A stretch of 12,082 nucleotides of DNA, taken from IMG/VR virus record IMGVR_UViG_2737471840_000002, positions 1 through 12,082 of that record, one strand, 5' to 3'. The stretch is from a virus (lineage: Duplodnaviria > Heunggongvirae > Uroviricota > Caudoviricetes). Shown in pieces: positions 1 through 12,082 of the stretch; the stretch's first letter is position 1, and every line of letters begins with the position of its first letter. Both the position numbers and the translations under genes were made by a program. Under the pieces are notes generated by a model. It did not search any database. It was not told where the DNA came from and saw only the letters and a program-made list of their open reading frames with translations.

Positions 1-61
1 ATTGAGTGGGAATGATTAACAGCTAACTCATAGCAACTCATTCCTATTCAGATACTAATTT

Positions 62-94
62 AACCCTCTGTTTTTACAGAGGGTTTTTGTTTTT
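62..94 (+). terminator. Rho-independent terminator (10-bp stem 62-71/76-85, loop TTTT, then T-rich tract)
   Basis: Seen in sequence: aaccctctgt-tttt-acagagggtt followed by tttgttttt. Probably terminates an upstream + strand gene outside the window (possibly the integration target gene). Confidence 0.7.
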
Positions 95-140
95 ATGTAT
101 TCATTTCTATTCACTCTACACCATATTTTTCGGCGGTACA

Positions 141-180
141 GGTGACGGTATTACCTTAAAGGTATACTCTCATACCGTCA
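141..180 (+). promoter_or_regulatory. Integrase upstream control region: operator-like site TTACCTTAAAGGTAT (151-165), -10-like TATACT (163-168), nested inverted repeats TGACGGTA (144-151)/TACCGTCA (173-180) and GGTAT-N6-ATACC (161-176)
   Basis: Direct inspection; the palindromes are exact. The operator-like site matches the TTACC-N5-GGTAA motif found elsewhere in the window at 9 of 10 positions. Confidence 0.45.
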
Positions 181-207
181 TGAAAATGGTTTCTATACGG
201 GTGAATT

Positions 208-1464
208 GTGCTTACCGATACAAAATTAAAAAACCTCAAGCCGCAGGACAAACTGTACAAGGTCTCCGATCGTGACGGGCTGTATGTAGCTGTGCTTACG
301 TCAGGCACGGTCTCGTTTCGCTACGACTACCGTATCAACGGTCGCCGCGAAACGCTGGTAATCGGGCAGTATGGGCGTGACGGTATCAGCCTGGCAGAAG
401 CGCGAGAAGAACTGATTGCTGCAAAGAAGCTGCTTAAAGCAGGCCAGTCACCGGCTGCGGCTAAACGTGACGGTATCAAAAAGATTCGTGGTGCCGAGAC
501 GTTTGCGGTACATACCGACAGTTATATGAAACACGTCATCCTGGCTGACAGTACCCGCGCAATGAAACAGGCGGTGATCGACCGTGACATACTTCCGGTT
601 CTTGGCAATAAAATGATGGCTGAAATTACCACATCGATGGTTCGTGATTTGTGTGACCGGATTGTCGAACGCGGTGGCCGGGCAACAGCAGTGCAGGCCA
701 GGGAGATCATCAGCAGCGTATACCGTCATGCCAATGACCGTGGTCATGGTTTGTTTAATCCTGCGGCTGACATTAAACCTTCGTCTATCGCCATATTTAA
801 ACCACGAGAGCGAACACTGACACCAGAAGAAATTGGCCTGTTCTTCCGCACGCTGGATGCCATTGGTGCTATGGGCACTATGAAAATGGCTTTAAAGCTG
901 GTGCTTATCACTATGGTTCGTAAAGGCGAATTCACCAATGCAACGTGGGATGAAATAGATTTTAAAAAATGGACATGGACAATTCCTTCAGACCGCATGA
1001 AGGGAAGCCGGGCGCACGTTATTTACCTGCCTAAACAGGCACAGGATATATTGGTTGGGTTGCAGATGTGCGCTGGTGGAAGTGAATATCTGGTTCCTGG
1101 TCGTTACAATTTCCGGAAGCCATTATCTAATGCCGCGCTGAACTCTCTGATCGACAGAACGGTGAAAATAATAAATGAAGATGGTGAGCATATTCAGGAC
1201 TTCACCGTACACGATATGCGCCGTACAGCAAGTACGTTGTTGCATGAGGCTGGTTATCCTTCAGACTGGATTGAAAAGGCTCTGGCACATGAGCAGAAAG
1301 GTGTGCGCGCCGTATATAACAAAGCGGAATACGCCAGACAGCGCGCCTACATGTTGCAGCAGTGGGCCGATATGATTGATTCCTGGATTGACGGGGAGCA
1401 TACGGATCTGATTCCGTTCTCCCCGTCGAAGTTTGAGAAGTGGATGGAAGACAGTAATAAATAA
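208..1464 (+). CDS. int: Tyrosine-type site-specific integrase, P4-like (N-terminal DUF4102-type arm-binding domain)
   Basis: GTG start at 208. N-terminus LTDTKLKNLKP...DGLYVAV is typical of P4-family integrases; C-terminal catalytic region has HDMRRTASTLL (R, H) and LAHEQKGVRAVYNKAEY (catalytic Tyr context). 418 aa. Confidence 0.9.
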   Translation: MLTDTKLKNLKPQDKLYKVSDRDGLYVAVLTSGTVSFRYDYRINGRRETLVIGQYGRDGISLAEAREELIAAKKLLKAGQSPAAAKRDGIKKIRGAETFAVHTDSYMKHVILADSTRAMKQAVIDRDILPVLGNKMMAEITTSMVRDLCDRIVERGGRATAVQAREIISSVYRHANDRGHGLFNPAADIKPSSIAIFKPRERTLTPEEIGLFFRTLDAIGAMGTMKMALKLVLITMVRKGEFTNATWDEIDFKKWTWTIPSDRMKGSRAHVIYLPKQAQDILVGLQMCAGGSEYLVPGRYNFRKPLSNAALNSLIDRTVKIINEDGEHIQDFTVHDMRRTASTLLHEAGYPSDWIEKALAHEQKGVRAVYNKAEYARQRAYMLQQWADMIDSWIDGEHTDLIPFSPSKFEKWMEDSNK

Positions 1465-1466
1465 TT

Positions 1467-2126
1467 CTATCCTTCCTGGACTTTGGTAAGCGTCAGATTT
1501 CCGCAGAACACTGCGCCGGTGTCGATGTACATCTGGTTTGCATACACCAGTGGGTGATGTGCTGGCGTATGACCGAAGATGAACAAATCGGCACCGGTTA
1601 TCTCCGAGACAATACCGTCCTGCGCGTCGCTAACCCGTTCACGATTCCATATCACCATTTCTTCTGGTACTGGCTTATCGAATGCGTATTCGTTGTGCGG
1701 GTAGTCTGCGTGACAGATGACGACCTTCTTATTGCCGGTAACCAGTTCGATAATCATCGGGAGGTTGGTAATCTTTGGCAGAAGGTATTTGAGTTGCACA
1801 TCCTGCTCAGAATCAAGTTGGTGCCACCATCCACCGCCGTTTGACATCCAATGTCCGAAACTTCCGCCGTTGACCAGTGCATCCAGCATCATCTGCTCAT
1901 GGTTGCCACGAACAGCTCGGAACCACGGCATAGTAATCAAATCCAGGCATTCGACGTTTTCAGCGCCGCGGTCAACAAGGTCACCAACGGAAATAAGTAA
2001 ATCGCGCGCCGGGTCGAATGAAACTTTGTCGAGTTCGTTCATCAGCAGCGTGTAGCACCCATGCAGATCGCCGACGACGAAGATATTGCACCAGTCAGCG
2101 CCATTGATGCGTTGATATAGGTTCAT
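1467..2126 (-). CDS. Lambda-type Ser/Thr protein phosphatase (PPP-family metallophosphoesterase; PrpA/PrpB/NinI-like)
   Basis: Motifs GDLHG, GDLVDRG, GNHE in canonical order; strong recalled similarity to E. coli PrpA. Start assigned to internal ATG ([12 protein letters not shown]...) at 2126, forming an ATGA overlap with the upstream gene stop; the track ORF extends to 2246 but that would overlap the methylase gene. Confidence 0.88.
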
Positions 2127-2773
2127 GCTGCACGCTCCCGCCCCTGGTTGTCTATTGGTGACACCGGAGCATTGCTGAATGCATTTGTTAATCCGCCAAT
2201 ATCCAACGCGTATCCAGGGTGTAGTTGCACTGCCGGGTCTTCGCACTGATTACCCCAAACATCGAAGCCATGAGACGACTGGCGGGCGAACAGTTCAATG
2301 CGAGAAACATCGCCTAACAATTGCACAAGTTTTTCACGAACGACATCTGGTTTTCTTGAATGCTCAAGCCGCGGTGCGGTAAATGACTGAACGATCCCTG
2401 CATTAATGCGCGGAGGTAGTTTTCCCTTTACTGCAAACAGGCAATCTTCACTATTGGCGCGAGTCATGTGTCCCATACCCATAACCAGTTTATCTGGTTG
2501 TCGACTACCACATTTTATCCACGTGAAGCCCTTCATCGTCATCAGACGGAATCCCCAGGCTTCAACAACTTTTAGTGCTTCGAGTGGTTGTGTTGGCACC
2601 CACCACATGGCCAACAGACAGTTTTCATCGGCCAAATCCCACACAGGAAGGCGGCAGATATCCAGCACACTCATAACCGGATATTTAAAACCGGCACCGC
2701 GATTACCATCTGCGGCTTTGTCCCGGTATACCCAGGGTGGATCTGCATAGATTAGTGTGTATTTCTTAGTCAT
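2123..2773 (-). CDS. MT-A70 family DNA N6-adenine methyltransferase (orphan, no cognate restriction gene visible)
   Basis: N-terminal motif LIYADPPW (DPPW catalytic motif) right after start MTKKY; ATG at 2773 preceded by GGGGTGG SD-like sequence; track ORF starts 12 nt further upstream at GTG 2785. Confidence 0.8.
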
Positions 2774-3065
2774 AAACCACCCCACAACATCCTATGCCGC
2801 TATAGTCGCCACGGCGAAGGCCGTTACCGTTTGTGATACATTGGTCCCTGCGAACCGCGATCCTTGCACGCTCAACATCACCAGAAGCAACATCCATACA
2901 CTGAAGCCAAAGGTGGGCGGCAATGCGGAACTGCCCTTTTTTCTCTCTTTCAATCGCGCGTTTTTCGATCTCTATCGCCGCAGGAGTAACGGCAACAACC
3001 TTTGAAGGGCTGCGCATTGAAACCTTGTTCATGTGATATTTTTCAAGTCGGCTTAACTTTCTCAC
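2766..3065 (-). CDS. Hypothetical protein (99 aa from GTG 3065; alternative ATG starts at 3032 or 3017)
   Basis: ORF in same orientation as flanking operon genes, overlaps methylase start by 8 nt (coupling). No motif recognised. Start uncertain. Confidence 0.5.
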   Translation of the reverse strand: MRKLSRLEKYHMNKVSMRSPSKVVAVTPAAIEIEKRAIEREKKGQFRIAAHLWLQCMDVASGDVERARIAVRRDQCITNGNGLRRGDYSGIGCCGVVYD

Positions 3066-3149
3066 TTAATCCAACCCTCTCTGAAAATTAATGCCAGCAG
3101 ATAAAGCCATGCTGAAACAGAGGCCAGGAATAAGTACCATCCTGACCAT
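3066..3149 (-). CDS. Candidate 27-aa hydrophobic micro-ORF (MVRMVLIPGLCFSMALSAGINFQRGLD)
   Basis: Not in the ORF track (too short). ATG at 3149-3147 preceded by GGAG; stop abuts GTG 3065 of the next ORF; fills most of the 109-nt gap after the AlpA-like gene. Could be chance. Confidence 0.25.
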   Translation of the reverse strand: MVRMVLIPGLCFSMALSAGINFQRGLD

Positions 3150-3174
3150 TTGCTCCAGTGCCTTAGCAGCGCAC

Positions 3175-3423
3175 TCATGCAGCGTTGCTCACAGGACGAT
3201 ATACACGTTGCTGAACAGGAGGCTTTTTACCCTGGAACTCTGCCGGGCTTGCTGCCTGACGTTCATCAAGCCAACGCTCAACTTCATCACGGTTCCATGC
3301 GCAGCGTTTATCGGTGATATACCAGCGTTTAGGAAATTCCCCTGCGCGCTCCATACGGTCGATAGTGCTCCATGACAGTGGCACCACCGCCAGGAGTTCC
3401 TTCTTACCTAATGCACCTTTCAT
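3175..3423 (-). CDS. AlpA-family phage regulatory protein (excisionase-like HTH; Phage_AlpA/MerR-like fold)
   Basis: 82 aa; the segment KKELLAVVPLSWSTIDRMERAGEFPKRWYITDKRCAWNRDEVERWLDE matches the AlpA/Xis-type winged-helix pattern (conserved W after the HTH, EV..W). RBS AGAGAGG 6 nt upstream of ATG 3423. Confidence 0.75.
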   Translation of the reverse strand: MKGALGKKELLAVVPLSWSTIDRMERAGEFPKRWYITDKRCAWNRDEVERWLDERQAASPAEFQGKKPPVQQRVYRPVSNAA

Positions 3424-3444
3424 AAATACCTCTCTTGGTTGCAG

Positions 3445-3465
3445 TGCGGCGCGCGTGGCGCCGCG
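3445..3465 (-). other. GC-only stem-loop (7-bp stem gcggcgc / gcgccgc, 5-nt loop) in the recT-alpA intergenic spacer, no U-tract
   Basis: Seen in sequence between stop of 3473-4354 gene and start of 3175-3423 gene. Confidence 0.5.
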
Positions 3466-3472
3466 GTGGTGG

Positions 3473-4354
3473 TTACATAGATGTTTCGTTTAATTCTTCC
3501 CGACGAACGCTGTAAACGTCGGTGGCTTTTGCCAGCAGTTCGTCATCATCTGAAAGTTTTTGTGCAATGTATTTGTAAGCCTTATCCAGTTCGGAGACAG
3601 TGCTGTAATTCATCGCTGCGCTGGTAAAGGCCATCAGCATTTCTTCTGGATCACGGCTATCCGCTTTACGCGTTTGCTCATCAGGCTTTTTCGCTGGTTT
3701 AGCGTTGATCAGACTGTTCATTCCCGCAGCAGTGGTCGTTTGCGGAGTAATGTCTCGCTCAACGCGCGGTGCCGTTTCCTGTAATTCGTCAGGGGTGTAA
3801 ACACCGAGAAGTACATCAGGAGCGTGCAGGCGAGCCCATCGTTTCGTGCAAAGATAGGCAAGCTGCTGGCGCGGATCCTGTTCCCACAATGGAGAGTTAC
3901 GCACTCCGGCTTGCGCCATACTGATGGTAAGCTCACGGGGTTCTGCTTCTCCTTTAAGAACTGCTGACACAGTTACCGTCAGATTCGGTGATTTATCTGT
4001 TTTGCCGTTAACATTCGACCAGTCACCGCTCCAGCGATAATTCAGGCGTGTCGCTAGCAGGCTGGAAGAGGATACGACCGCGTTTACCAACTGTGCTTCG
4101 TAGCCTAACGTTCCGTTTACCACATGCGTTTTCTGCGCCACGGCGAAAGGATTCATTCCCCACTGTGCCGCCTGCATGGTCACCGCCAGACAATCGGCAG
4201 TTTTGCCTTCAAGATGTTTCGGTACAGTCGCTTTGCTTTGTGACATCAACTCCGCGAAACGCACCAGTTGATTCATGCCCTCCGGGCTGAAGATTGCCGC
4301 AGCAGTACCTACAGTTGCGCCTGGTTGTGATGTGATTGCGATATCATTGCTCAT
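3473..4354 (-). CDS. Putative phage single-strand annealing protein / recombinase (RecT/Bet-like)
   Basis: 293 aa; immediately downstream of and ATGA-coupled to a PD-(D/E)xK exonuclease, the classic exo+SSAP pairing. Family assignment is by context and loose recall, not by a confirmed motif. Confidence 0.55.
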   Translation of the reverse strand: MSNDIAITSQPGATVGTAAAIFSPEGMNQLVRFAELMSQSKATVPKHLEGKTADCLAVTMQAAQWGMNPFAVAQKTHVVNGTLGYEAQLVNAVVSSSSLLATRLNYRWSGDWSNVNGKTDKSPNLTVTVSAVLKGEAEPRELTISMAQAGVRNSPLWEQDPRQQLAYLCTKRWARLHAPDVLLGVYTPDELQETAPRVERDITPQTTTAAGMNSLINAKPAKKPDEQTRKADSRDPEEMLMAFTSAAMNYSTVSELDKAYKYIAQKLSDDDELLAKATDVYSVRREELNETSM

Positions 4355-5172
4355 ACGTACATATCCTGTTTACGTGCCCAGTCAGGGCGTTTAATAATTT
4401 CCACTCCGCCCCACTCATCGTTGATGCGGCATTCGTGATAGGTATTCAGATCCCGGCGGAACAGAGCGTGCCCGGCATCGACATCCGGCGCATCCAGCTC
4501 GAACACGCGTACCGGATACCGACCACAATCAATGCTTTCGCTCACGGCAAGAAAGAAAAAACCATGCGGCTGACCAGTAACCTTCATTGCGCCTTCGCGG
4601 TACATTGCGTCCTGCACGTGGTAGCGGAATTCCTCGATGTGGCGTGCAAAACGGTCCATATCTGCAACCTTTTTCACGTCGACGATCACGTTGTGCTCGT
4701 TCAGCCATTTGTCTGGACGAATGCGGCACAACTCACCAGTATCTTCATCGTTCCAGTACATTGATGCTTCGCAGTAACCAGGTGCTTCCAGCATCCAGCG
4801 TGCCGCCGGGTGAGCCATTGCGCTATCACGCATCAGCTCCAGTTTCCGCCACTGCTCGGCATCAAGTACCGTAATCCCCATATCCGCCACATCACGAAGA
4901 AATGCCTCTTCGTCAGCTTTACCTTGTTTCGTCCGACGATCGAATTTCGGTGAAACAATGAAGCGTTTGTCGAACTCTCCAGGCTCCAGAAGCAGACAGT
5001 GCAATGCAGTTCCCATATCCAGTGCAGACTTTTTCTCTTCGTCTTCTGGTGCTGCCTGAACCCATTTAAGAAGCGCCGGATTCTTGGCAACCATGTCTAG
5101 TTGCGACTTACTCACGCCGTCACCGGCGTGGTAGTCTTCGTTGCTGATGTCGAAATAAATTCCCGGTTTCAT
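4351..5172 (-). CDS. PD-(D/E)xK-superfamily nuclease (phage recombination exonuclease, RecE C-terminal domain/YqaJ-like)
   Basis: 273 aa; acidic/K motif region (…NVIVDVKKVADMD…), located in recombination module; ATGA overlaps on both sides. Confidence 0.6.
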   Translation of the reverse strand: MKPGIYFDISNEDYHAGDGVSKSQLDMVAKNPALLKWVQAAPEDEEKKSALDMGTALHCLLLEPGEFDKRFIVSPKFDRRTKQGKADEEAFLRDVADMGITVLDAEQWRKLELMRDSAMAHPAARWMLEAPGYCEASMYWNDEDTGELCRIRPDKWLNEHNVIVDVKKVADMDRFARHIEEFRYHVQDAMYREGAMKVTGQPHGFFFLAVSESIDCGRYPVRVFELDAPDVDAGHALFRRDLNTYHECRINDEWGGVEIIKRPDWARKQDMYV

Positions 5173-5468
5173 GCCGCGTCCCTCTGTCCATCAAGCTGAT
5201 CCGCCAGATCCCAGCGGGCGATAATTGCCATTGCCTCTCGCCGATAGGCATCCATCAGTTCTTCGAACTCAGGGCTGTCTTTAGCAGCCTCCAGTACTTC
5301 CTGACGAACGCCTTTGACTGTTACAACGTCGAAAGTTGAGGACAGTTGATGAAGTCGGATGCTCTCAATCAGTTCAACTTGTCGGTCATATAGCTGTTCT
5401 GACAGGCGGTAGTCCTTGTCGAATGCCAGCATGATTTTTTGAAGATTTTTCTGCTGATTAACGTTCAT
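5169..5468 (-). CDS. Hypothetical protein (99 aa from ATG 5468; track gives 101 aa from GTG 5474)
   Basis: RBS GAGGTG upstream of ATG 5468; stop overlaps exonuclease start (ATGA). Confidence 0.6.
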   Translation of the reverse strand: MNVNQQKNLQKIMLAFDKDYRLSEQLYDRQVELIESIRLHQLSSTFDVVTVKGVRQEVLEAAKDSPEFEELMDAYRREAMAIIARWDLADQLDGQRDAA

Positions 5469-5475
5469 ACCCACC

Positions 5476-6510
5476 TCAATATTTGATATACGCGTCCTGC
5501 ACTTTGCCGCCAGCGATAGCCAACATTGCTTTCTGCGCGAATTCTTCGGGAATGCCTTGGGCTATCAGATCTGCGATTACTCTGCGGTTAACGGTACGGC
5601 GATGCTCTTTATCTGCAGCTCGGCGCGCTTCTTCGTCGGCGATACGCTTCTGTTCGTCAAGGCGGGCTTTTTCTGCCGCCTCTTGGCGTCGGCGTTCCTC
5701 GGCAACGGCTTCTTCTTTTTCGCGTCGTGCGCGCTGCTCTGCTTCAATTCGCTGACGTTCTGCTACTTCAGCACGTGCTTTTTCTTCCGCCGCCAGGCGT
5801 GCCGCAGCCTCAATTTCAGCTTTCGCTTTTTGTTCAGCTTCGAGCCTGGCCTGTTCAGCAGCTTCCCGGCGGATATTCTCTTCTCGCTCAATGCGCGCTT
5901 TTTCCTCCGCTTCTTTGCGAAGTCGCTCCAGCTCAGCGGCTTCATGCTCGCGTTTTTGAGCTACTGCGAGTGATTCTTCCAGTTTCTGGATGGTTGAATC
6001 CTTGGCTACTCCAGCTTCTGCTGCGTACTCCTGCCAACTTTCATCAAGTGCTACTGATTTAGCCTCTTGAATTCGTTCCTGAATATCAGATGATGGCAAG
6101 TAGTTTCCGGAGAGATCGATCACGTCAGCTAGTGCTCGCAAATTTGTCAGGCGTTGTTGCAGTGCTTCAGTGCGTAATTTCTCAGCATTTTCCCACTCGG
6201 TGAGTGGGCGGCGTACTTCATCACGAAGACGATCGCATTCGGTTACGAAGCGTCGTAACTCTGCTTCAACTACTTTCGGCTGTTCTTTCAGGCGTTTCAG
6301 ATAATCACGTCCTGGTTTTTCTACCGCTGTTTTACTTCTTGAAACCTTCGCAGCCAGAGATGCAATGCGCTTTCTGCCTTTGTCTGTGCTAATGTCAGGC
6401 ACTTCATTAACACCTTCACGGATCTGCTCGAGAAACTTTTCCAGCCCTTTTTCAACGTAAATTCTTGGTGCCATGTCTGGTGTGATTTCGATGATTGACA
6501 ATTCACTCAT
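5476..6510 (-). CDS. Hypothetical phage protein with long E/A/R/K-rich coiled-coil (low-complexity) segment
   Basis: 344 aa; residues about 185-300 are an (E-A-x-x-K/R-A-R)n-like charged helix; globular N- and C-terminal parts. Function not recognised. Confidence 0.7.
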   Translation of the reverse strand: MSELSIIEITPDMAPRIYVEKGLEKFLEQIREGVNEVPDISTDKGRKRIASLAAKVSRSKTAVEKPGRDYLKRLKEQPKVVEAELRRFVTECDRLRDEVRRPLTEWENAEKLRTEALQQRLTNLRALADVIDLSGNYLPSSDIQERIQEAKSVALDESWQEYAAEAGVAKDSTIQKLEESLAVAQKREHEAAELERLRKEAEEKARIEREENIRREAAEQARLEAEQKAKAEIEAAARLAAEEKARAEVAERQRIEAEQRARREKEEAVAEERRRQEAAEKARLDEQKRIADEEARRAADKEHRRTVNRRVIADLIAQGIPEEFAQKAMLAIAGGKVQDAYIKY

Positions 6511-6518
6511 TTGCTAAC

Positions 6519-6668
6519 CTACTCCCATATCTCGTTATCGTTGGCCACATCGCGAGCTTCTTTGCTGACGAAAGCCCACTTAATGCCTTCCTGTAAGGTG
6601 CGGAACTTCCAGCTCATGAATCCGCATGCAGTAACGCAGTACCAACCGTTGATGATTTTCCACTGCAT
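6519..6668 (-). CDS. Candidate small protein, 49 aa (MQWKIINGWYCVTACGFMSWKFRTLQEGIKWAFVSKEARDVANDNEIWE), first gene after pL-like promoter
   Basis: Not in ORF track (<60 aa). ATG 6668-6666 with GAGG 9 nt upstream; stop 8 nt before start of 344-aa gene. Confidence 0.45.
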   Translation of the reverse strand: MQWKIINGWYCVTACGFMSWKFRTLQEGIKWAFVSKEARDVANDNEIWE

Positions 6669-6687
6669 AACTTGTTACCTCGGTCTG

Positions 6688-6702
6688 TTACCGTTGAGGT
6701 AA
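6688..6702. promoter_or_regulatory. Operator-like palindrome TTACC-GTTGA-GGTAA (OL-proximal, overlapping pL -10/+1)
   Basis: Exact 5+5 inverted repeat with 5-bp spacer. Confidence 0.6.
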
Positions 6703-6730
6703 TAATTATGCGTATATGGTTTGATGTCAA
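6700..6730 (-). promoter_or_regulatory. pL-like promoter: -35 TTGACA (plus coords 6725-6730), AT-rich -10 (about 6702-6708)
   Basis: Consensus -35 hexamer on minus strand, 16-17 bp spacer to AATTAT/TAATTA; flanked by two operator palindromes. Confidence 0.5.
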
Positions 6731-6749
6731 TAGATATGAGTTAAAAAAA

Positions 6750-6764
6750 TTACCAGTTAGGTAA
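6750..6764. promoter_or_regulatory. Operator-like palindrome TTACC-AGTTA-GGTAA (OL-distal)
   Basis: Exact 5+5 inverted repeat with 5-bp spacer. Confidence 0.6.
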
Positions 6765-6776
6765 TCGAATAGGCAA

Positions 6777-6800
6777 TAAAAAAGCCGCCATAAGGCGGCT
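6777..6800 (-). terminator. Rho-independent terminator for repressor gene (stem agccgcc/ggcggct, loop, then 6 U on minus strand)
   Basis: Seen in sequence 22 nt downstream of repressor stop. Confidence 0.75.
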
Positions 6801-6821
6801 TACTTACTGAAAAATATGGTT

Positions 6822-7406
6822 TTATTGTTTGTTTTTTTCGTTCTGGTTGATGACAAATTCAATGTAACTTTCGATCTTTGCTTTCTCGGTTTCGGGTAAC
6901 AATGCGTAGCGCGAGCGATCATAGTTGATGGTCGCAGGGTCGTGCGGGTGAATCAGTAATTCATAGCCGTGACGCCCGAATGCGGATGCAACATTCTCCA
7001 GGGTGGAAATGGAAACGCTGACCTCATTGTTTAACAGGCGGCTGATTGTCACCTGGGCGACGCCGGATGCGCGGTGTAGTTTTCCCTGCGTTGAAAGGTC
7101 GCGGCTTTCGCTCATCCAGCGTTCCAGGTTGTGAGCCGCCAGCTGACCAATGTCGCTTGGGCCGACAGGCTGAAAACCTTCCTGAGAAAGCGAGCGATCG
7201 ATATCAAGCCAGTTACGTGGTTTATTGGCGGCAGCTTCAATTTTTCGCGCAACCTGGTCGCCGATAACCTTCTTGCCAAGAGCCCAGCGGTTTACCAGAT
7301 TTGCCTGAGTTCCAAGTTTTTCTGCCATCCGCGTCTGAACACCATTGAATTCACGGTCGATCAAGTCGTTGAGATTTTGCCTGCGGACGTCTTGGATACT
7401 TTTCAT
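6822..7406 (-). CDS. CI-like prophage repressor with two XRE-type helix-turn-helix domains and no LexA-like S24 peptidase domain
   Basis: 194 aa. HTH-1 about residues 20-60 (QTRMAEKLGTQANLVNRWALGKKVI), HTH-2 about residues 110-150 (ASGVAQVTISRLLNNEVSVSISTLENVA). Position and orientation equivalent to lambda cI (divergent from cro-like gene, followed by terminator and pL). No S24 motif visible. Confidence 0.65.
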   Translation of the reverse strand: MKSIQDVRRQNLNDLIDREFNGVQTRMAEKLGTQANLVNRWALGKKVIGDQVARKIEAAANKPRNWLDIDRSLSQEGFQPVGPSDIGQLAAHNLERWMSESRDLSTQGKLHRASGVAQVTISRLLNNEVSVSISTLENVASAFGRHGYELLIHPHDPATINYDRSRYALLPETEKAKIESYIEFVINQNEKNKQ

Positions 7407-7429
7407 TTTCTGGAAAATCGCCTCATATA

Positions 7430-7448
7430 TGAATCAGTAGATGATTCA
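7430..7448. promoter_or_regulatory. Perfect 7-5-7 palindrome TGAATCA-gtaga-TGATTCA, 24-42 bp upstream of repressor start
   Basis: Seen in sequence; distinct from the TTACC/GGTAA motif. Confidence 0.45.
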
Positions 7449-7461
7449 ATTTAAAGCAATA

Positions 7462-7524
7462 TTACCCAACAGGTAAATGCACCCCATAGGTAACTATCCT
7501 TGATTTTTGTTACCTTATGGGTGA
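7462..7524. promoter_or_regulatory. OR-like tripartite operator: TTACC-CAACA-GGTAA (7462-7476), gcACC-CCATA-GGTAA (7479-7493), TTACC-TTATG-GGTgA (7510-7524)
   Basis: Three copies or near-copies of the same palindrome between the divergent repressor and Cro-like genes. Confidence 0.65.
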
Positions 7525-7535
7525 ATATTTATTAT
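7507..7535 (+). promoter_or_regulatory. pR-like promoter: -35 TTGTTA (7507-7512), 17-bp spacer, -10 TATTAT (7530-7535)
   Basis: Hexamer match and spacing; overlapped by operator 7510-7524. Confidence 0.45.
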
Positions 7536-7560
7536 CTGAAATAAATATCAGGCAATAGCT

Positions 7561-7791
7561 ATGAGCGATAACGAACATTTCGATTTCAAAAAGCACTGGC
7601 TTGCACTTACTCCGGATGAGCGTGAAGCCTTCGCACAGGAAGCCGGAACGACGAGTCACTATATCCAGACTCACTTAACAGGTAAGCGCAAAATGCCAGG
7701 TAAAGTATTGATGAATGGGCTTTTTAAAGCCTGTAAAACAAGACAATGGCTGCGCTCAAAAGCAGAACTGGCATACTTCTTCTACTCATGA
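7561..7791 (+). CDS. Cro-like small HTH regulator (putative)
   Basis: 76 aa, divergent from repressor across operator region; segment EREAFAQEAGTTSHYIQTHLTGKRK resembles Cro/YdaS-type HTH. Weak RBS. Confidence 0.5.
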   Translation: MSDNEHFDFKKHWLALTPDEREAFAQEAGTTSHYIQTHLTGKRKMPGKVLMNGLFKACKTRQWLRSKAELAYFFYS

Positions 7792-7813
7792 TATCCAGCT
7801 ACAACCCTCTGTA

Positions 7814-7838
7814 GACCGCCACCCGGCGGTCTTTTCAT
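7814..7838 (+). terminator. Rho-independent terminator (stem gaccgcc/ggcggtc, loop accc, then TTTT) downstream of Cro-like gene
   Basis: Seen in sequence. Confidence 0.65.
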
Positions 7839-7846
7839 ATCTATTC

Positions 7847-7861
7847 GTACCTCAAAGGTAA
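7847..7861. promoter_or_regulatory. Operator-like palindrome GTACC-TCAAA-GGTAA (9 of 10 match)
   Basis: Immediately after terminator, upstream of candidate -35 TTGATC (7879-7884). Confidence 0.45.
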
Positions 7862-7941
7862 TAAAAAACCAAATATGGTTGATCTTTTTTTTGTGTCAGC
7901 ACAAAATGACCGTAATCCCAATACTAATAGCAGGGCTTACC

Positions 7942-8142
7942 ATGGAAATCATTACACGTATTGATGCCGCAAAGCGCGGACTTAAACGCTACTACACCGG
8001 AAAAACATGTAAGCACGGACATGACAGTGAACGCTGGGTTTACAACGGACACTGTGTTGAGTGCACCATGGAATCAAACCGTCGTATCAGGGCAGAGATT
8101 AAGCAGATCATGATTAATTCCTCCCCACAACATTCAAGCTGA
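7942..8142 (+). CDS. Small Cys/His-rich putative zinc-ribbon protein (66 aa from ATG 7942; possible longer form from ATG 7906 with hydrophobic N-terminus)
   Basis: CKHGH...HCVEC arrangement; occupies the cII-like position between cro-like gene and replication genes. Start uncertain. Confidence 0.5.
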   Translation: MEIITRIDAAKRGLKRYYTGKTCKHGHDSERWVYNGHCVECTMESNRRIRAEIKQIMINSSPQHSS

Positions 8143-8157
8143 TAGCGGAGATTAATC

Positions 8158-8973
8158 ATGAGCAGACATGCAACAGATTGGGCCTGGGAGACAGATCCAG
8201 GTAGCTCGTCATTAAAGCTCATACTGCTCTCGATGGCTGACAGAGCCGATGAATATAACCTCTGCTACCCCAGCATAGAACGCCTCGTTAAAGACACTTG
8301 CCTGAACAAAAAAACCGTGCAGGCCGGGCTTATATCGCTCATGAAAATGGGGCTTATTTCAGATACCGGAGAGAGAAAGGGAGCGACGAAAAGAGTGCGG
8401 GTTTTCTCTCTTAATATAACCAAAAACGGGAACATTAAAGGCAACCGGGAAGGGGGTAATGAACCCGAAAACGGTAATGTTACCGAAAACGGGAATATAC
8501 CCAAAAACGGGATGTTGAATGATCCCAAAAACGGGATGTTGAATGATCCCAAAAACGGGATCCAGAACCAGTCATATAACCAGTCATTTAACCAAGAGAG
8601 GGAGAGCAGGACAAAAAACGGGGATTCTGTGCATCATGACCCCGGCGCAAACAACGCCGTGATGAATAACTTTGTTCCTCCTGGTGGGCCAGGGCAATTA
8701 GGCAAATTTGTCATGCATGAACAATGGCAGCCATCAGATGACTTTCTTCGGAAAAGCTCATTGCAGGGGATCTACCTGGACAGTCTGCCAACGGCACAGG
8801 AACTTGCAGAGTTCAGAATTTACTGGATGGCTGAGGGTAAGGCATACCATCAGGCACAGTGGGAGCAGAAGCTGGCAAGGCGGCTGCAGATTAGCAGACA
8901 GAAGCAATCAACATTACCTGATAACAACGTTCCGCACTGGAACAGCCCTGAAGCATGGGAGGATTTCTTGTGA
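8158..8973 (+). CDS. Replication initiator / replisome organizer (lambda O-like: N-terminal HTH DNA-binding domain, iteron-encoded linker, C-terminal DnaT-like domain)
   Basis: 271 aa; N-terminus LKLILLSMADRADEYNLCYPSIERLVKDT is HTH-like (replication-initiator type); the central NG(N/M)-rich repeats are encoded by the iterons; directly followed by and GTGA-coupled to a P-like gene. Confidence 0.75.
   Translation: MSRHATDWAWETDPGSSSLKLILLSMADRADEYNLCYPSIERLVKDTCLNKKTVQAGLISLMKMGLISDTGERKGATKRVRVFSLNITKNGNIKGNREGGNEPENGNVTENGNIPKNGMLNDPKNGMLNDPKNGIQNQSYNQSFNQERESRTKNGDSVHHDPGANNAVMNNFVPPGGPGQLGKFVMHEQWQPSDDFLRKSSLQGIYLDSLPTAQELAEFRIYWMAEGKAYHQAQWEQKLARRLQISRQKQSTLPDNNVPHWNSPEAWEDFL
8419..8624. 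repeat. Origin-like iteron array: at least 6 copies of (A/T)CC(C/G)AAAACGG(G/T)A at 8419, 8464, 8482, 8499, 8523, 8547 (spacing 18-24 bp) plus a degenerate copy near 8611
   Basis: Direct repeats counted in sequence; last three copies are exact 24-bp tandem repeats (cccaaaaacgggatgttgaatgat). Embedded in the initiator gene as in lambda ori. Confidence 0.8.
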
Positions 8974-9755
8974 ACAACGTTTTTACCGCGATACAAAACC
9001 GTGACGGAGAAGCCCTTTCTCGCATGTCAGGTTATGAGCATCAGTACACCAACAATGACAACGTGGTGAACATGTCAGCAGAGAGGCTTGTTGATGCCCT
9101 TTTCAAACAGCTGAAACAACTGTTTCCGGCGGCAGTGGTAACCAACCTGAAGACGCCAGAGCAGGAAGTTGCTGCAAAACAGCAGTGGATTGCTGCGTTT
9201 GCCGAAGGGGGGATCCGAACCCGTGAACAGGTTTCTGCTGGTATGCGCCACGCCCGCGCCAGTGAGTCTCCGTTCTGGCCGTCGCCAGGGCAATTCATCA
9301 AGTGGTGTAAAGACAGCAAGATGGTTCTTGGCGTCACCATTGACGATGTGATGGCGGAGTTTCACCGGTACAGCAAGGAAAAAAGTTTATATCCTGGTGG
9401 TCCCGAAAGATTCCCGTGGCGGCATCCGGTTATGTACTGGGTCGTATGTGATACCCGCCGTGCAATGTATCAGCGCCAGCTTAGCGAGATTGAGGTTGAG
9501 AAACACGCGCGCAGGCTGCTCGATGATTGGGCGAAAAAGGTGGCTTCCGGACAGCGGATACCCGATCCGGTGATCAGCATACAGGCAAAGTCAGAGCCCA
9601 TGAGTACACCTCCGGACACAGGGAGAGACGTTTACCATCCACCAGGGCGAAGTTTCGGGTGCATGCCTAACGCCGCCACCCTTGGGGGAATAACACCGGC
9701 GCAGTGGCTGATGGAGGAATACAGGCGGGGAAAGGCGGCAGGATTTATCAAGTAA
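8970..9755 (+). CDS. Replication protein P-like helicase loader (lambda P family)
   Basis: Recalled similarity to lambda P: GMRHARASESPFWPSPGQFIKWC vs lambda GMRVARRQNRPFLPSPGQFVAWC; GTG start at 8970 with GGGAGGA SD 6 nt upstream, overlapping O-like stop (GTGA). Track ORF begins at ATG 8955. Confidence 0.85.
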   Translation: MNNVFTAIQNRDGEALSRMSGYEHQYTNNDNVVNMSAERLVDALFKQLKQLFPAAVVTNLKTPEQEVAAKQQWIAAFAEGGIRTREQVSAGMRHARASESPFWPSPGQFIKWCKDSKMVLGVTIDDVMAEFHRYSKEKSLYPGGPERFPWRHPVMYWVVCDTRRAMYQRQLSEIEVEKHARRLLDDWAKKVASGQRIPDPVISIQAKSEPMSTPPDTGRDVYHPPGRSFGCMPNAATLGGITPAQWLMEEYRRGKAAGFIK

Positions 9756-9792
9756 TACCAGCGCGATAGCGCATTTTTTTACGCCTTAACAA

Positions 9793-9807
9793 TTACCTAT
9801 TGGGTAA
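9793..9807. promoter_or_regulatory. Operator-like palindrome TTACC-TATTG-GGTAA
   Basis: Exact match to motif, upstream of promoter-like hexamers. Confidence 0.55.
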
Positions 9808-9826
9808 TAAAATATTCTAAATTCTA

Positions 9827-9855
9827 TTGATTTCGTGTCTTATGTGGTTTTTAAT
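9827..9855 (+). promoter_or_regulatory. Promoter-like: -35 TTGATT (9827-9832), 17-bp spacer, -10 TTTAAT (9850-9855)
   Basis: Hexamers and spacing; sandwiched between two operator-like palindromes in the same way as the pL-like promoter. Confidence 0.45.
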
Positions 9856-9869
9856 TACCTCAGAGGTAA
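9855..9869. promoter_or_regulatory. Operator-like palindrome TTACC-TCAGA-GGTAA overlapping the RBS of the downstream gene
   Basis: Exact match; GAGG of the site doubles as SD for ATG 9873. Confidence 0.55.
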
Positions 9870-9872
9870 ATC

Positions 9873-10217
9873 ATGAGAAAACAGATACAGGCTCTTGGTC
9901 GACTCAAAACAGGTCAGATGAACAAAACAGAATCTGCGTATTGCCAGCACCTTGAGCTGCGTAAACGTGCAGGAGAAATCGTCTGGTATCGATTTGAGGG
10001 TATCAAGCTGCGGTTAGCTGACAACACGTTCTATACGCCCGATTTTGCTGTGATGCTCGCCACCGGCGAGATGGAACTGCACGAAGTGAAAGGTTTCTGG
10101 ACCGACGACGCCAGGGTGAAAACCAAAGTCGCCGCAGATCAGTATCCGTTCCGAATCATCGGGGTAACGGTTAAACCAAAGAAAGCAGGTGGTGGCTGGA
10201 ACATCGAAGAGTTCTGA
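9873..10217 (+). CDS. DUF1064-like phage protein (114 aa)
   Basis: Recalled family resemblance (MRKQIQALGRLK...YRFEGIKLRLADNTFYTPDF...HEVKGFWTDDARVK). Not verified by search. Confidence 0.55.
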   Translation: MRKQIQALGRLKTGQMNKTESAYCQHLELRKRAGEIVWYRFEGIKLRLADNTFYTPDFAVMLATGEMELHEVKGFWTDDARVKTKVAADQYPFRIIGVTVKPKKAGGGWNIEEF

Positions 10218-10278
10218 ATCGACGATCTTTTTAGTTATCAATGTAATCAATAAGTTATGTGGATAAGCGAGGGTAAAG

Positions 10279-10827
10279 ATGGAAAGTAATATCAAAGGGT
10301 TAGTTGCCGCCGGGCATGAGATGGCTTCGGAACTGAAAGCAGAATGTGGTGCCGTTGATATGCGCAGTGTGGCAAAGCTGATCAGCGATTTGGCAACGCA
10401 ACTGGAAGTGCAACTGGTGCGTGCTAATGCGCTGGCAGCGGAGAATGCGGGGCTGAAACATGCAATGGCTGTAACTCTTGAGCATGTGTCGGTCACGGAT
10501 GCAGGGCAGGCTGGTGTTGCTGCAATGATTATCAACGATGCCCTGCACCACAGCGAAACTCCCGCCACCGATGCTTTCCTTGCTGAAATTCGTGCGGAAG
10601 CACGCAACGAGGGGATTAACTATACCGCCAGCCGTCTTGCTGCTGCGTTCAATCACGGATTTATCAATAAGTCTTTACGTGAAGTTTTCGACGTTACACG
10701 CATGATTCTGTCAGCGAAAGAAGAGTTAGCTAATGAACCGCACCCGATTGATGGCCTGTCCAGTGAATATGCGGAGAAATCCCTAGAAGAATGGGCGGAG
10801 CAGCTTCGCAAAGGAGGCAACCAGTGA
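10279..10827 (+). CDS. Hypothetical phage protein (182 aa), possibly Ea22-like
   Basis: ATG with GAGGG RBS; stop overlaps the next gene start (GTGA). No motif recognised with confidence. Confidence 0.55.
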   Translation: MESNIKGLVAAGHEMASELKAECGAVDMRSVAKLISDLATQLEVQLVRANALAAENAGLKHAMAVTLEHVSVTDAGQAGVAAMIINDALHHSETPATDAFLAEIRAEARNEGINYTASRLAAAFNHGFINKSLREVFDVTRMILSAKEELANEPHPIDGLSSEYAEKSLEEWAEQLRKGGNQ

Positions 10828-11576
10828 GCGAAATTAATTACCAGGCACTGCGTGAGGCGGCGGAACGTGCAATTCCAGCAATGGAACGCCTGTTAATGTT
10901 GCCAGCTGATGATGATTTGTTAAGTGAACAGGAACTTAAAGATTACGGTGTGGATATTGATGCGCTCAACGCCTTCAAATTTCTGGCCGGACCAGAAACC
11001 GTGCTGGCACTACTGGATGAACGGGAAAGGAACCAGCAATACATCAAATCCCGCGATCAGGAGAACGAGGATATTGCGCTAACGGTAGGGAAGCTGAGAG
11101 TTGAGCTTGAGGAAGTAAAACAACACGCTGAAGAATTATCCGAAACCAAGGCTGTTCGTAACCAATGGCGGCCAGATATTTGCCCAATAACCGGACGTGC
11201 ATTTTTCATGTGGATTGAGCATCCAACATTGGGAAATGTGCCGACATATGGTGGCCCATTAGATAGTTACACCATTCCAACAAAGGACGGTGACGGTGAG
11301 TTTTCATGTGAGCGTTACGATCATGATTTTGGCGGTTGGGTAGAAAGCGAATGTCTTGGGTTATATCTGATTGATGATAGAGAACAATGCAGGGTCTACG
11401 AACTGGAGGAACGCGTTAAGGAACTGGATGCTCGGGAAATATCGCTCCCGGAACGTAGCAGCATGCTTCATCGAACAGATTTTCACGATGATTACCAAAC
11501 GGTAATGGCATACAAAGTTTCTGAAGTCATCGCTGCAATCCGCGCCGCAGGCATTCGCATCAAAGGAGGTGAGTAA
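10824..11576 (+). CDS. Ead/Ea22-like family protein (250 aa from GTG 10824)
   Basis: N-terminus SEINYQALREAAERA resembles the conserved start of Ea22-like proteins (recall); AAGGAGG SD 6 nt before GTG. Track ORF begins at 10791 but has no SD. Confidence 0.55.
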   Translation: MSEINYQALREAAERAIPAMERLLMLPADDDLLSEQELKDYGVDIDALNAFKFLAGPETVLALLDERERNQQYIKSRDQENEDIALTVGKLRVELEEVKQHAEELSETKAVRNQWRPDICPITGRAFFMWIEHPTLGNVPTYGGPLDSYTIPTKDGDGEFSCERYDHDFGGWVESECLGLYLIDDREQCRVYELEERVKELDAREISLPERSSMLHRTDFHDDYQTVMAYKVSEVIAAIRAAGIRIKGGE

Positions 11577-11752
11577 TGCGTGTGGCATGTATCGGCTTGT
11601 TACCGTACCCGACTCGTTTTTGGGCTTCTGCGCTAATTGCAAAGCCGTATGTCCTGATGGCTGACAACATCATCCCGGCACCAAAGCGCCGCCATACCGG
11701 TATTGCAGCGGCACGACGAGCAGCAAAGAGACGCAGGAGAGCAAAGCGATGA
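11576..11752 (+). CDS. Small basic protein, 58 aa (C-terminus AARRAAKRRRRAKR)
   Basis: Not in ORF track. ATG 11576 overlaps preceding stop (TAATG) with AGGAGGTGA SD; stop overlaps next start (ATGA). Confidence 0.4.
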   Translation: MRVACIGLLPYPTRFWASALIAKPYVLMADNIIPAPKRRHTGIAAARRAAKRRRRAKR

Positions 11753-11925
11753 AAAACCGTAAGGCAAAACGACTTTTTTTACAGCGACCTGTGCGTGTGG
11801 TGGAGCTGGTTATTAGCAACCATAAGATAGCGGTACTCCATCCATTTGGTCAGGTGGCTTTTGCCGCAAAGCGTAAGCCTACTGCGTCACAGAACAGGCG
11901 GAAGAAAGGGTACGCTGTAAGATGA
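11749..11925 (+). CDS. Small basic protein, 58 aa (MKNRKAKRLFLQRP...), paralog of next ORF
   Basis: Not in ORF track. ATGA overlaps on both ends; shares N-terminus MKNRKAK with the following ORF. Confidence 0.4.
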   Translation: MKNRKAKRLFLQRPVRVVELVISNHKIAVLHPFGQVAFAAKRKPTASQNRRKKGYAVR

Positions 11926-12082
11926 AAAACCGTAAAGCAAAGATTCTGTTAGTTCGTAGAAACGCTCCTGGCGTCTGGCAGTGGGTGAGACTCAGCAACC
12001 GACGGATGGGGTTGATGAAATATTACGGGATGATGGATTGTGGTTTTTGCAAAAAGCCCAGCGCGGCGCAAAACCGCTGGAA
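11922..12082 (+). CDS. Small basic protein, partial (at least 53 aa; MKNRKAKILLVRR...), runs off the window end
   Basis: Not in ORF track. Same N-terminal heptapeptide as the preceding ORF; no stop before the window ends. Confidence 0.4.
   Translation, partial: MKNRKAKILLVRRNAPGVWQWVRLSNRRMGLMKYYGMMDCGFCKKPSAAQNRW

Follow-up and report, generated by a model that had tools for sequence, protein, structure and literature searches.

Repeated terminator, operator and promoter elements in the early region of a phiV10-like prophage and the expression of its replication genes

How are the replication genes of a temperate phage transcribed when a terminator stands between them and the early rightward promoter, and no N-like antiterminator is evident? 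This question is raised by a prophage sequence of 12,082 nucleotides (IMG/VR record IMGVR_UViG_2737471840_000002, positions 1 to 12,082; hereafter the window), in which the gene for the Cro-like protein p41, transcribed from the pR promoter, is followed by a GC-rich hairpin, a small gene called p42, and the genes for a replication initiator and a lambda-P-like helicase loader. An earlier reading of the same DNA (the original prediction) placed a rho-independent terminator directly after the Cro-like gene and an operator-like site and promoter-like hexamers beyond it, and named internal repressor-controlled promoters, put-like RNA-based antitermination and an unrecognised factor as possible routes to delayed-early expression. 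All three elements were recovered in our analysis, and the first route is the one that we favor. The transcript from pR probably ends for the most part at the hairpin, and p42 and the replication genes would be expressed from their own promoter, P2, which is linked to sites for the prophage repressor Rep, such that no antiterminator would be needed. We consider this account probable, although well short of certain. Coordinates of the features are collected in Table 1.

The hairpin and the predicted promoter behind p41

The hairpin begins 22 nt past the p41 stop codon. Its stem, AGACCGCC/GGCGGTCT at 7813-7832, contains 8 bp, of which six are GC, encloses the loop ACCC and is followed by TTTTCATATC. 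The GC-rich stem of at least 5 bp and the short loop expected of an intrinsic terminator are therefore present, as is a U-tract (UUUUCAUAU) with four consecutive U residues followed by two in the next five positions. The predicted free energy was −14.5 kcal/mol compared to −16.6 kcal/mol for the terminator of the repressor gene in the window, which has to function in the lysogen. A generic terminator scan of the window gave no enrichment (12 found versus 12.6 expected in shuffles), so the case for this hairpin rests on its quality, position and conservation. Conservation was assessed over 87 loci containing a p41 homolog, taken from phage records, IMG/VR contigs and bacterial genomes, with three phages added later. 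In 84 of the 87 loci the stem is kept; it varies only by changes compatible with G-U pairing or by one change of the closing pair. The U-tract is kept in 82. Loop and upstream flank are variable among the phiV10, Tyrion, Erwinia and Superficieibacter types, which keep the U-run. The GenBank record of phiV10 (DQ126339.2) annotates the hairpin (33078..33100) as a 'putative rho-independent terminator', which reduces the novelty that the original prediction implied. From its features and conservation, the 7813-7838 hairpin appears to be an ordinary intrinsic terminator that was already annotated in part.

The picture differs in the epsilon15, SPN1S, SPC32H, Citrobacter and Klebsiella types, in which a GC hairpin of identical core leads into CUCCUUCCUGC or UCCCGCCUCUCC and there is no U-run. 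This hairpin lies at 8696-8725 in epsilon15 (L006) and at about 1756-1790 in the SPC32H and Klebsiella records (L095-L097), with a C/U-mixed tract after it. As the U-run is missing from the epsilon15, SPC32H and Klebsiella lineages, the canonical terminator is lineage-specific, whereas P2 and the operator are universal. One could also envision that the conserved role of the hairpin is that of a 3' stabilizer or processing site of the p41 message, the U-run of the phiV10 lineage being secondary. The core CCG(C/T)C...GGCGG is found past p41 in every lineage and the U-run in only the four types named above, and RNase III sites are annotated at other places of the epsilon15 genome. However, the window hairpin lacks none of the features of an intrinsic terminator, and 82 of the 87 loci retain the tail TTTCATATC. 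We regard a primary role of this kind, which is compatible with termination, as unlikely.

Promoter-like hexamers before the replication genes were confirmed as a predicted sigma-70 promoter, P2, in which TTGATC and CAAAAT are separated by 17 nt, within the usual 16-18 nt, with A at −11 and T at −7. The predicted start site is A7914 or A7915, 28 nt before the p42 start codon. The hexamers match the consensus at 8 of 12 positions (four in each), just under the threshold of the scanner, and P2 was not listed by the consensus scan for this reason. We also scored 120,470 candidates on both strands of the window with a position weight matrix (PWM), using hexamer frequencies of the classic promoter compilations, such that the scores are approximate. 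The four highest ranks went to pL, to P3a behind the replication genes, to pR and to P2, in this order; all four are intergenic and lie beside operators.

The P2 hexamers are highly conserved. Among the 87 loci the −35 hexamer is TTGATC in 82 and TTGATA in five, the −10 hexamer is CAAAAT in 85 with AAAAAT and GAAAAT once each, and the spacing is 16-18 nt throughout, with nine different spacer sequences. The hexamers are also present in SPC32H and in Klebsiella phages. In a seven-way alignment covering the E. coli, Enterobacter, Salmonella, Erwinia, Citrobacter and Superficieibacter types, GGTTGAT and AAAAT are invariant and the spacer between them varies. In the ZX5/TL-2011b type, homology to the window stops right past TTGATC and a different p42/replication module follows, yet CAAAAT is still found 16 nt further on. 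The mosaic junction between the immunity module and these alternative p42/replication modules falls at 7884/7885, i.e. right after the −35 hexamer, such that two exchangeable modules each supply a part of P2.

A palindrome of 14 bp without mismatches, AACCAAATATGGTT, both abuts and overlaps the −35 hexamer. Its CC..AT..GGTTGAT columns are invariant in seven divergent types, and its arms contain zero or one mismatch across genera while the center varies. No further AACC-N6-GGTT copy was found in the window, which contains six loose matches compared to 2.9 expected. This palindrome could be the binding site of an additional regulator. Two leftward promoter candidates in the same interval, CTGACA-16-CATATT (7899-7872) and TCTACA-16-TATCAT (7815-7788), were rejected, as the ZX5, Tyrion and epsilon15 types do not retain their hexamers. 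Also rejected, for want of conserved support, was a pRE-like or antisense promoter that would direct transcription back into p41 and the repressor gene.

Predicted Rep operators and the repeated cassette

Operators for Rep were sought as TTACC-N5-GGTAA. With up to two mismatches the window contains 14 matches compared to 3.2 expected, and none of 200 shuffles reached 14. The site at 7847-7861, which resembles the palindrome common to the left and right operators (OL and OR) of this phage, corresponds to the operator-like site that had been seen past the terminator. It differs from the motif at one position, and its center is at about −60 from the predicted P2 start. An operator is found 45-56 nt past the p41 stop codon in seven of eight divergent types scanned; the exception is Erwinia, which has the GGTAAT half only. 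The right half GGTAAT is almost invariant and present in every type, whereas the left half is never perfect (GTACC, GCACC, TCACC, CTACC, ACACC, ATACC or AACTC). From this pattern the junction operator appears to be conserved as a weak site. A covariation test against heteroimmune relatives was impossible, as all relatives found share the TTACC/GGTAA half-sites. Neither an operator nor a promoter is annotated at the post-p41 junction in the phiV10-group public records examined. The epsilon15 record annotates four equivalent sites as repressor-binding, including the one at the post-replication junction, and the operator layout was therefore partly recognized before.

One and the same order of elements is seen at three places in the window, namely pL, P2 and the junction after the P-like gene. 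In the P2 cassette, terminator 7813-7838 and operator 7847-7861 are followed by 17 nt, TTGATC, 17 nt, CAAAAT and a degenerate half-site, TGACC (7907-7911). At the junction after the P-like gene, terminator 9761-9780 and operator 9793-9807 are followed by 19 nt, TTGATT, 17 nt, TTTAAT and operator 9855-9869. The promoter candidates of this third unit, P3a and P3b, are TTAACA-16-TAAAAT (9786-9813) and TTGATT-17-TTTAAT (9827-9855). Its terminator has an invariant GCGC...GCGCATTTTTTTAC and a variable loop in seven types. The centers of the upstream operators are at −62 (pL), −60 (P2) and −62 (P3b) relative to the predicted starts. At pL and past the P-like gene, perfect operators are paired 62 bp apart, or about six helical turns, a distance that suits a tetramer touching two palindromes. 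Binding of palindromic sites by a Rep tetramer is described in a secondary summary of the SPC32H work (PMC9638917), and fits the paired operators.

The distribution of operators was also analyzed in the complete genome of phiv142-3, which is about 90% coding. Of 15 motif matches with at most one mismatch, 14 are intergenic. They fall at eight loci: upstream of int, at OL, at OR, at the post-p41 junction, at the post-replication junction, before TerS (two sites), before Orf27 (one) and around the antirepressor gene (three). A 15.8-kb stretch of this genome (L002) contains 11 sites with at most one mismatch compared to 0.2 expected. At 12771-12840 of L002, a GCCGCC-AACTAT-GGCGGC terminator and two operators are found right before the small terminase gene, and there are further perfect operators on either side of the antirepressor gene and before Orf27 (4758, 5138, 6153 and 23656 of L094). 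Rep sites would thus seem to mark the late and antirepressor units too.

Two other sites in the window merit description. An operator-like sequence, TTACCTTAAAGGTAT (151-165), precedes the integrase start by about 45 bp and shares bases with a candidate promoter, GTGACG-15-TATACT (142-168); a site in this position is conserved in epsilon15 (1883-1897 of L006), and the arrangement suggests that int has its own Rep-controlled promoter. On the minus strand, TTTACC-18-TAAATT (7477-7448; PWM rank 9) overlaps operator 7462-7476 and could plausibly serve the repressor gene as its maintenance promoter.

From the sequence elements, their conservation and their repeated geometry, we infer the activity of P2, the efficiency of termination, and the binding of Rep at 7847-7861 and its effect. 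The right arm would be a chain of short transcription units rather than a lambda-style operon in need of antitermination. Each unit would be bounded by an intrinsic terminator and would start with a sigma-70 promoter flanked by SPC32H-type Rep sites. The pR transcript, starting at about 7542, would carry p41 alone and would mostly stop at the hairpin, with p42, the initiator and the P-like loader being transcribed from P2 (start at about 7914). Rep bound at 7847-7861 would help silence the P2 unit in the lysogen, either by occluding the AT-rich stretch upstream of the −35 hexamer, by bridging as a tetramer to OR, at a distance of 340-390 bp, or by stopping polymerases that had passed the terminator. 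Inactivation of Rep by the antirepressor would then cause all of the units to fire together without an antiterminator. Read-through from pR probably adds to P2, and more so in the lineages without a U-run. SPC32H Rep is reportedly inactivated by a LexA-controlled antirepressor and not by self-cleavage.

A broader version of this mechanism, which we offer tentatively and consider rather doubtful, is that the whole lytic program proceeds without processive antitermination. A Rep tetramer would sit at the start of every terminator-insulated unit (int, pL, pR, P2, post-replication, terminase/late and antirepressor), and induction would be a single genome-wide derepression. Operators behind terminators would double as elongation roadblocks, resembling stoperators in a Gram-negative podovirus.

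The elements at the junction can be read in another way. The hairpin could be a leaky attenuator that sets a high ratio of the Cro-like protein to the replication proteins. The downstream genes would then be reached by read-through only, P2 would be non-functional, and the site at 7847 would merely assist OR, e.g. by looping. The short U-run UUUUCAU is compatible with partial termination, read-through from pR is expected in the epsilon15, SPC32H and Klebsiella relatives that lack it, and P2, with its eight matches, is absent from the consensus scan list. However, a leaky attenuator leaves unexplained the invariance of the P2 hexamers and their spacing over nine spacers in all 87 loci, the rank of P2 beside three operator-linked promoters, and the recurrence of the cassette at pL and past the P-like gene. 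We consider it improbable that read-through is the only source of these transcripts.

Several observations nevertheless weigh against transcription of p42 and the replication genes from a Rep-controlled P2. The match of P2 to the consensus is weak and its −10 hexamer never starts with T, and the palindrome at the −35 hexamer raises the possibility that an activator is required at P2. A literature search found no transcript data for this phage group; the ZX5 paper gives four predicted promoters without coordinates, and terminators and antitermination are not discussed in it. The operator at 7847-7861 is imperfect and solitary, and a center near −60 is not a classic repressing position. The only partner at 62 bp from it is the degenerate half-site noted above. 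This position and this poor downstream partner make the silencing of P2 in lysogens hard to account for. In a covariation test of the hairpin, 93.8% of the cells pair, only a single pair shows a change in both of its partners, and the score does not exceed that of shuffles; as there are too few compensatory changes to prove the structure statistically, this result is uninformative rather than negative. Lastly, the lineages without a U-run indicate that the conserved role of the hairpin may be one other than termination.

The search for antitermination parts

The absence of an evident N-like antiterminator, as first noted, held up in a wider search. No match to an N or Q family was found with Pfam or PHROGs among the early proteins of the window or the remaining right-arm proteins of phiv142-3, nor was a Q-family protein found upstream of the late operon among the right-arm proteins of either. 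The first gene after pL does not encode an Arg-rich N-like protein; as had been described, its product is a Trp- and Cys-containing protein of 49 aa with two Arg. When all open frames of the window were scanned for Arg-rich proteins, the only real candidate was an open reading frame (ORF) of 58 codons (11576-11752, plus strand). Lying 4 kb downstream on the right arm, it is by its position in the wrong place for an N analogue. The C-terminal segment of this 58-aa protein, KRRHTGIAAARRAAKRRRRAKR, contains 9 R and 3 K in 22 residues; the protein matches phrog_13831 and appears to be PhiV10p49.

RNA elements were sought as well. No boxA with at most one mismatch in the right orientation was found downstream of pL or pR. 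A small hairpin at 7800-7812 has a 6-nt loop, ACCCUC, which is unlike the boxB loop. An Rfam search of the window gave no relevant match, although the presence of a put model in Rfam was not confirmed. The distance from the predicted start to the first start codon is about 19 nt for pR and about 27 nt for pL, and these leaders are too short for a put or nut element ahead of the first genes. A scan for intrinsic terminators found none within the pL operon, so the leftward arm needs no antiterminator. Thus, the routes named at the outset fared differently. Internal repressor-controlled promoters gained from the family-wide conservation of P2 and from the cassettes at two other junctions, a put-like RNA found no support in the short leaders or the Rfam search, and no candidate was found for a protein factor.

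A further phage antitermination system might still carry polymerase from pR past the hairpin, its agent being p41, the 49-aa pL product, another small protein or an RNA element in the pR transcript. No function is known for several of the small early proteins (phrog_898, phrog_1081 and phrog_856), and the lack of a homology match does not prove the lack of a function. Against such a system stand the missing N, Q, boxA and Rfam matches, the absence of an Arg-rich protein near pL or pR with the sole Arg-rich ORF 4 kb away, and the short leaders; moreover, the lineages without a U-run have the same gene set, with no sign of a co-evolving factor. We consider this explanation very unlikely.

The identity of the prophage bears on this question. 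When the immunity region (6400-8300) was used as a 1.9-kb query, it was found to be 98% identical in nucleotide sequence to Escherichia phages phiv142-3 and phiV10, and the order of repressor gene, p41, hairpin, p42 and replication genes is colinear with the phiV10 annotation. Nucleotide identity and gene order relative to the type members therefore both place the window in Uetakevirus. The region was detected in 562 of 5,426 complete E. coli genomes (about 10%). The window starts with the attachment (att) core attgagtgggaatgatt, the sequence of which was taken from PMC9782041, at the 3' end of guaA. A P4-type integrase gene, a leftward recombination operon, the immunity region and a rightward replication operon follow. 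From these data we conclude that the window belongs to a prophage of the genus Uetakevirus, the phiV10/epsilon15-like podoviruses, which is integrated at guaA and is not lambdoid. As its Rep is homologous to SPC32H Rep and the phage is a podovirus of the epsilon15/phiV10 type, an N-like gene was never to be expected, and the lambda N/nut scheme was the wrong yardstick for the original prediction.

Early genes and comparison with known systems

The p41 family is narrow, all 49 matches being at least 62% identical. An AlphaFold (AF2) model of p41 is a five-helix bundle with a mean predicted local distance difference test score of 82.5. Its nearest folds in a Foldseek search were the N-terminal domains of the 434 repressor and YdaS, P22 c2 and 434 Cro (template modeling scores of 0.54-0.62, E-values of at least 0.7), and a sequence search against the PDB gave no match. 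The label Cro-like is reasonable on position and modeled fold class, short of demonstration.

Within the initiator gene, at 8419-8622, there are six copies of the iteron (A/C)C(C/A)(A/G)AAAACGGG with spacings of 18, 24 and 63 bp, which also encode a repeated PKNGMLND peptide; by their arrangement they are probably the replication origin. In phiv142-3 (12383-12721 of L002), in a part not covered by the window, the early gene that immediately precedes the terminase genes is a homolog of epsilon15 gp49 and matches phrog_536 'transcriptional regulator'. On this match, no other gene is as obvious a candidate for regulating the late genes of the phage group. Two genes of the left arm, both on the minus strand, are mosaic accessory genes: one for a NinI-like Ser/Thr phosphatase (1467-2246) and one for a 344-aa Glu/Arg/Ala-rich coiled-coil protein (5476-6510; phrog_1376). 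ARAGORN found no tRNA in the window.

Table 1. Features of the early region of the window (HTH, helix-turn-helix; dG, predicted free energy in kcal/mol; a dot marks features given without a strand)
Feature	Position	Strand	Description	Evidence
First pL gene	6519..6668	-	49 aa; 2 Arg, 5 Trp, 2 Cys	phrog_898, no assigned function
pL cassette	6688..6801	-	repressor-gene terminator 6801-6782, operator 6764-6750, 19 nt, TTGACA-17-AATTAT (6730-6702), operator 6702-6688	PWM rank 1
Prophage repressor Rep	6822..7406	-	194 aa, two HTH regions	PDB 5d50, E 1.9e-41, full length; Pfam HTH_3; phrog_8
OR	7462..7524	.	three operators: 7462-7476 (perfect), 7479-7493 (2 mismatches), 7510-7524 (1 mismatch)	motif scan; positions same in all relatives examined
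pR (predicted)	7507..7535	+	TTGTTA-17-TATTAT, overlapped by operator 7510-7524; predicted start ~7542	promoter scan; PWM rank 3
p41	7561..7791	+	76-aa Cro-like HTH protein (PhiV10p41/epsilon15 gp39 family)	phrog_35 'transcriptional repressor', E 6e-13
Intrinsic-terminator-type hairpin	7813..7838	+	AGACCGCC-ACCC-GGCGGTCT then UUUUCAU	
Imperfect candidate Rep operator	7847..7861	.	GTACCTCAAAGGTAA	one mismatch (G for T, position 1)
Perfect 14-bp palindrome	7867..7880	.	AACCAAATATGGTT; abuts/overlaps P2 -35	only perfect match in window
P2 (predicted sigma-70 promoter)	7879..7907	+	TTGATC (7879-7884)-17-CAAAAT (7902-7907)	PWM and conservation
p42	7942..8142	+	66-aa Cys/His-rich protein (PhiV10p42/epsilon15 gp40), first gene past hairpin	phrog_1081, E 2e-42
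Replication initiator	8158-8973	+	HTH_36 and DnaT domains; contains iterons	Pfam, PHROGs
Lambda-P-like helicase loader	8955-9755	+		Pfam, PHROGs
Second, weaker terminator	9761..9780	+	GCGC-GATA-GCGC-A-T7, directly past P-like gene	dG -7.4; annotated terminator in phiV10
Third unit start (predicted)	9786..9869	+	perfect operators 9793-9807 and 9855-9869, 62 bp apart	motif and promoter scans, PWM

The Rep/Ant switch of this phage group has been studied structurally, and our literature search found no description of its transcription plan. What is new here is modest, namely a map of repeated terminator-operator-promoter cassettes together with a family-conserved predicted promoter ahead of the replication genes. 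The main value of the analysis is as a correction, in that prophages of this type should not be read by the lambda N/Q template. The map also offers concrete testable elements for a group of phages used as reporter and typing phages. If true, the genome-wide operator layout as a one-step derepression would be a simple alternative to antitermination cascades.

The closest known systems are phiV10 (DQ126339.2), phiv142-3, ZX5 and TL-2011b, all of Uetakevirus, with which the window shares the 98% identity in the immunity region, the gene order and the annotated hairpin; phiV10 differs in lacking the coiled-coil gene and the NinI-like phosphatase gene. The Salmonella phages epsilon15 and SPC32H have a homologous Rep (5d50), TTACC/GGTAA half-sites at OL, at OR and past the replication genes, and the P2 hexamers. 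In contrast to the window, their post-p41 hairpin is weaker or register-shifted and is followed by CUCCUUCCUGC in place of a U-run, and no terminator is annotated there in the epsilon15 record. Judged by these features, termination at this hairpin is probably poor.

The stoperators of mycobacteriophage L5 are similar in that one immunity repressor has many sites throughout the genome in short intergenic gaps, and could block elongation as well as initiation. The L5 sites are asymmetric, orientation-dependent, monomer-bound and more numerous (PMC9283540). Those of the window type are palindromes that frequently occur in pairs spaced 17-18 or 62 bp and are tetramer-bound in SPC32H, and a roadblock is hypothetical here. 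The cro-nutR-tR1 region of lambda also has a terminator right after the gene in the cro position and ahead of the replication genes, and a repressor-gene terminator before pL. Lambda tR1 requires Rho, and N overrides it by way of nut (boxA/boxB). The terminator in the window is by contrast of the intrinsic type, no N-like protein or nut site was found, and a predicted promoter separates the terminator from the gene that follows.

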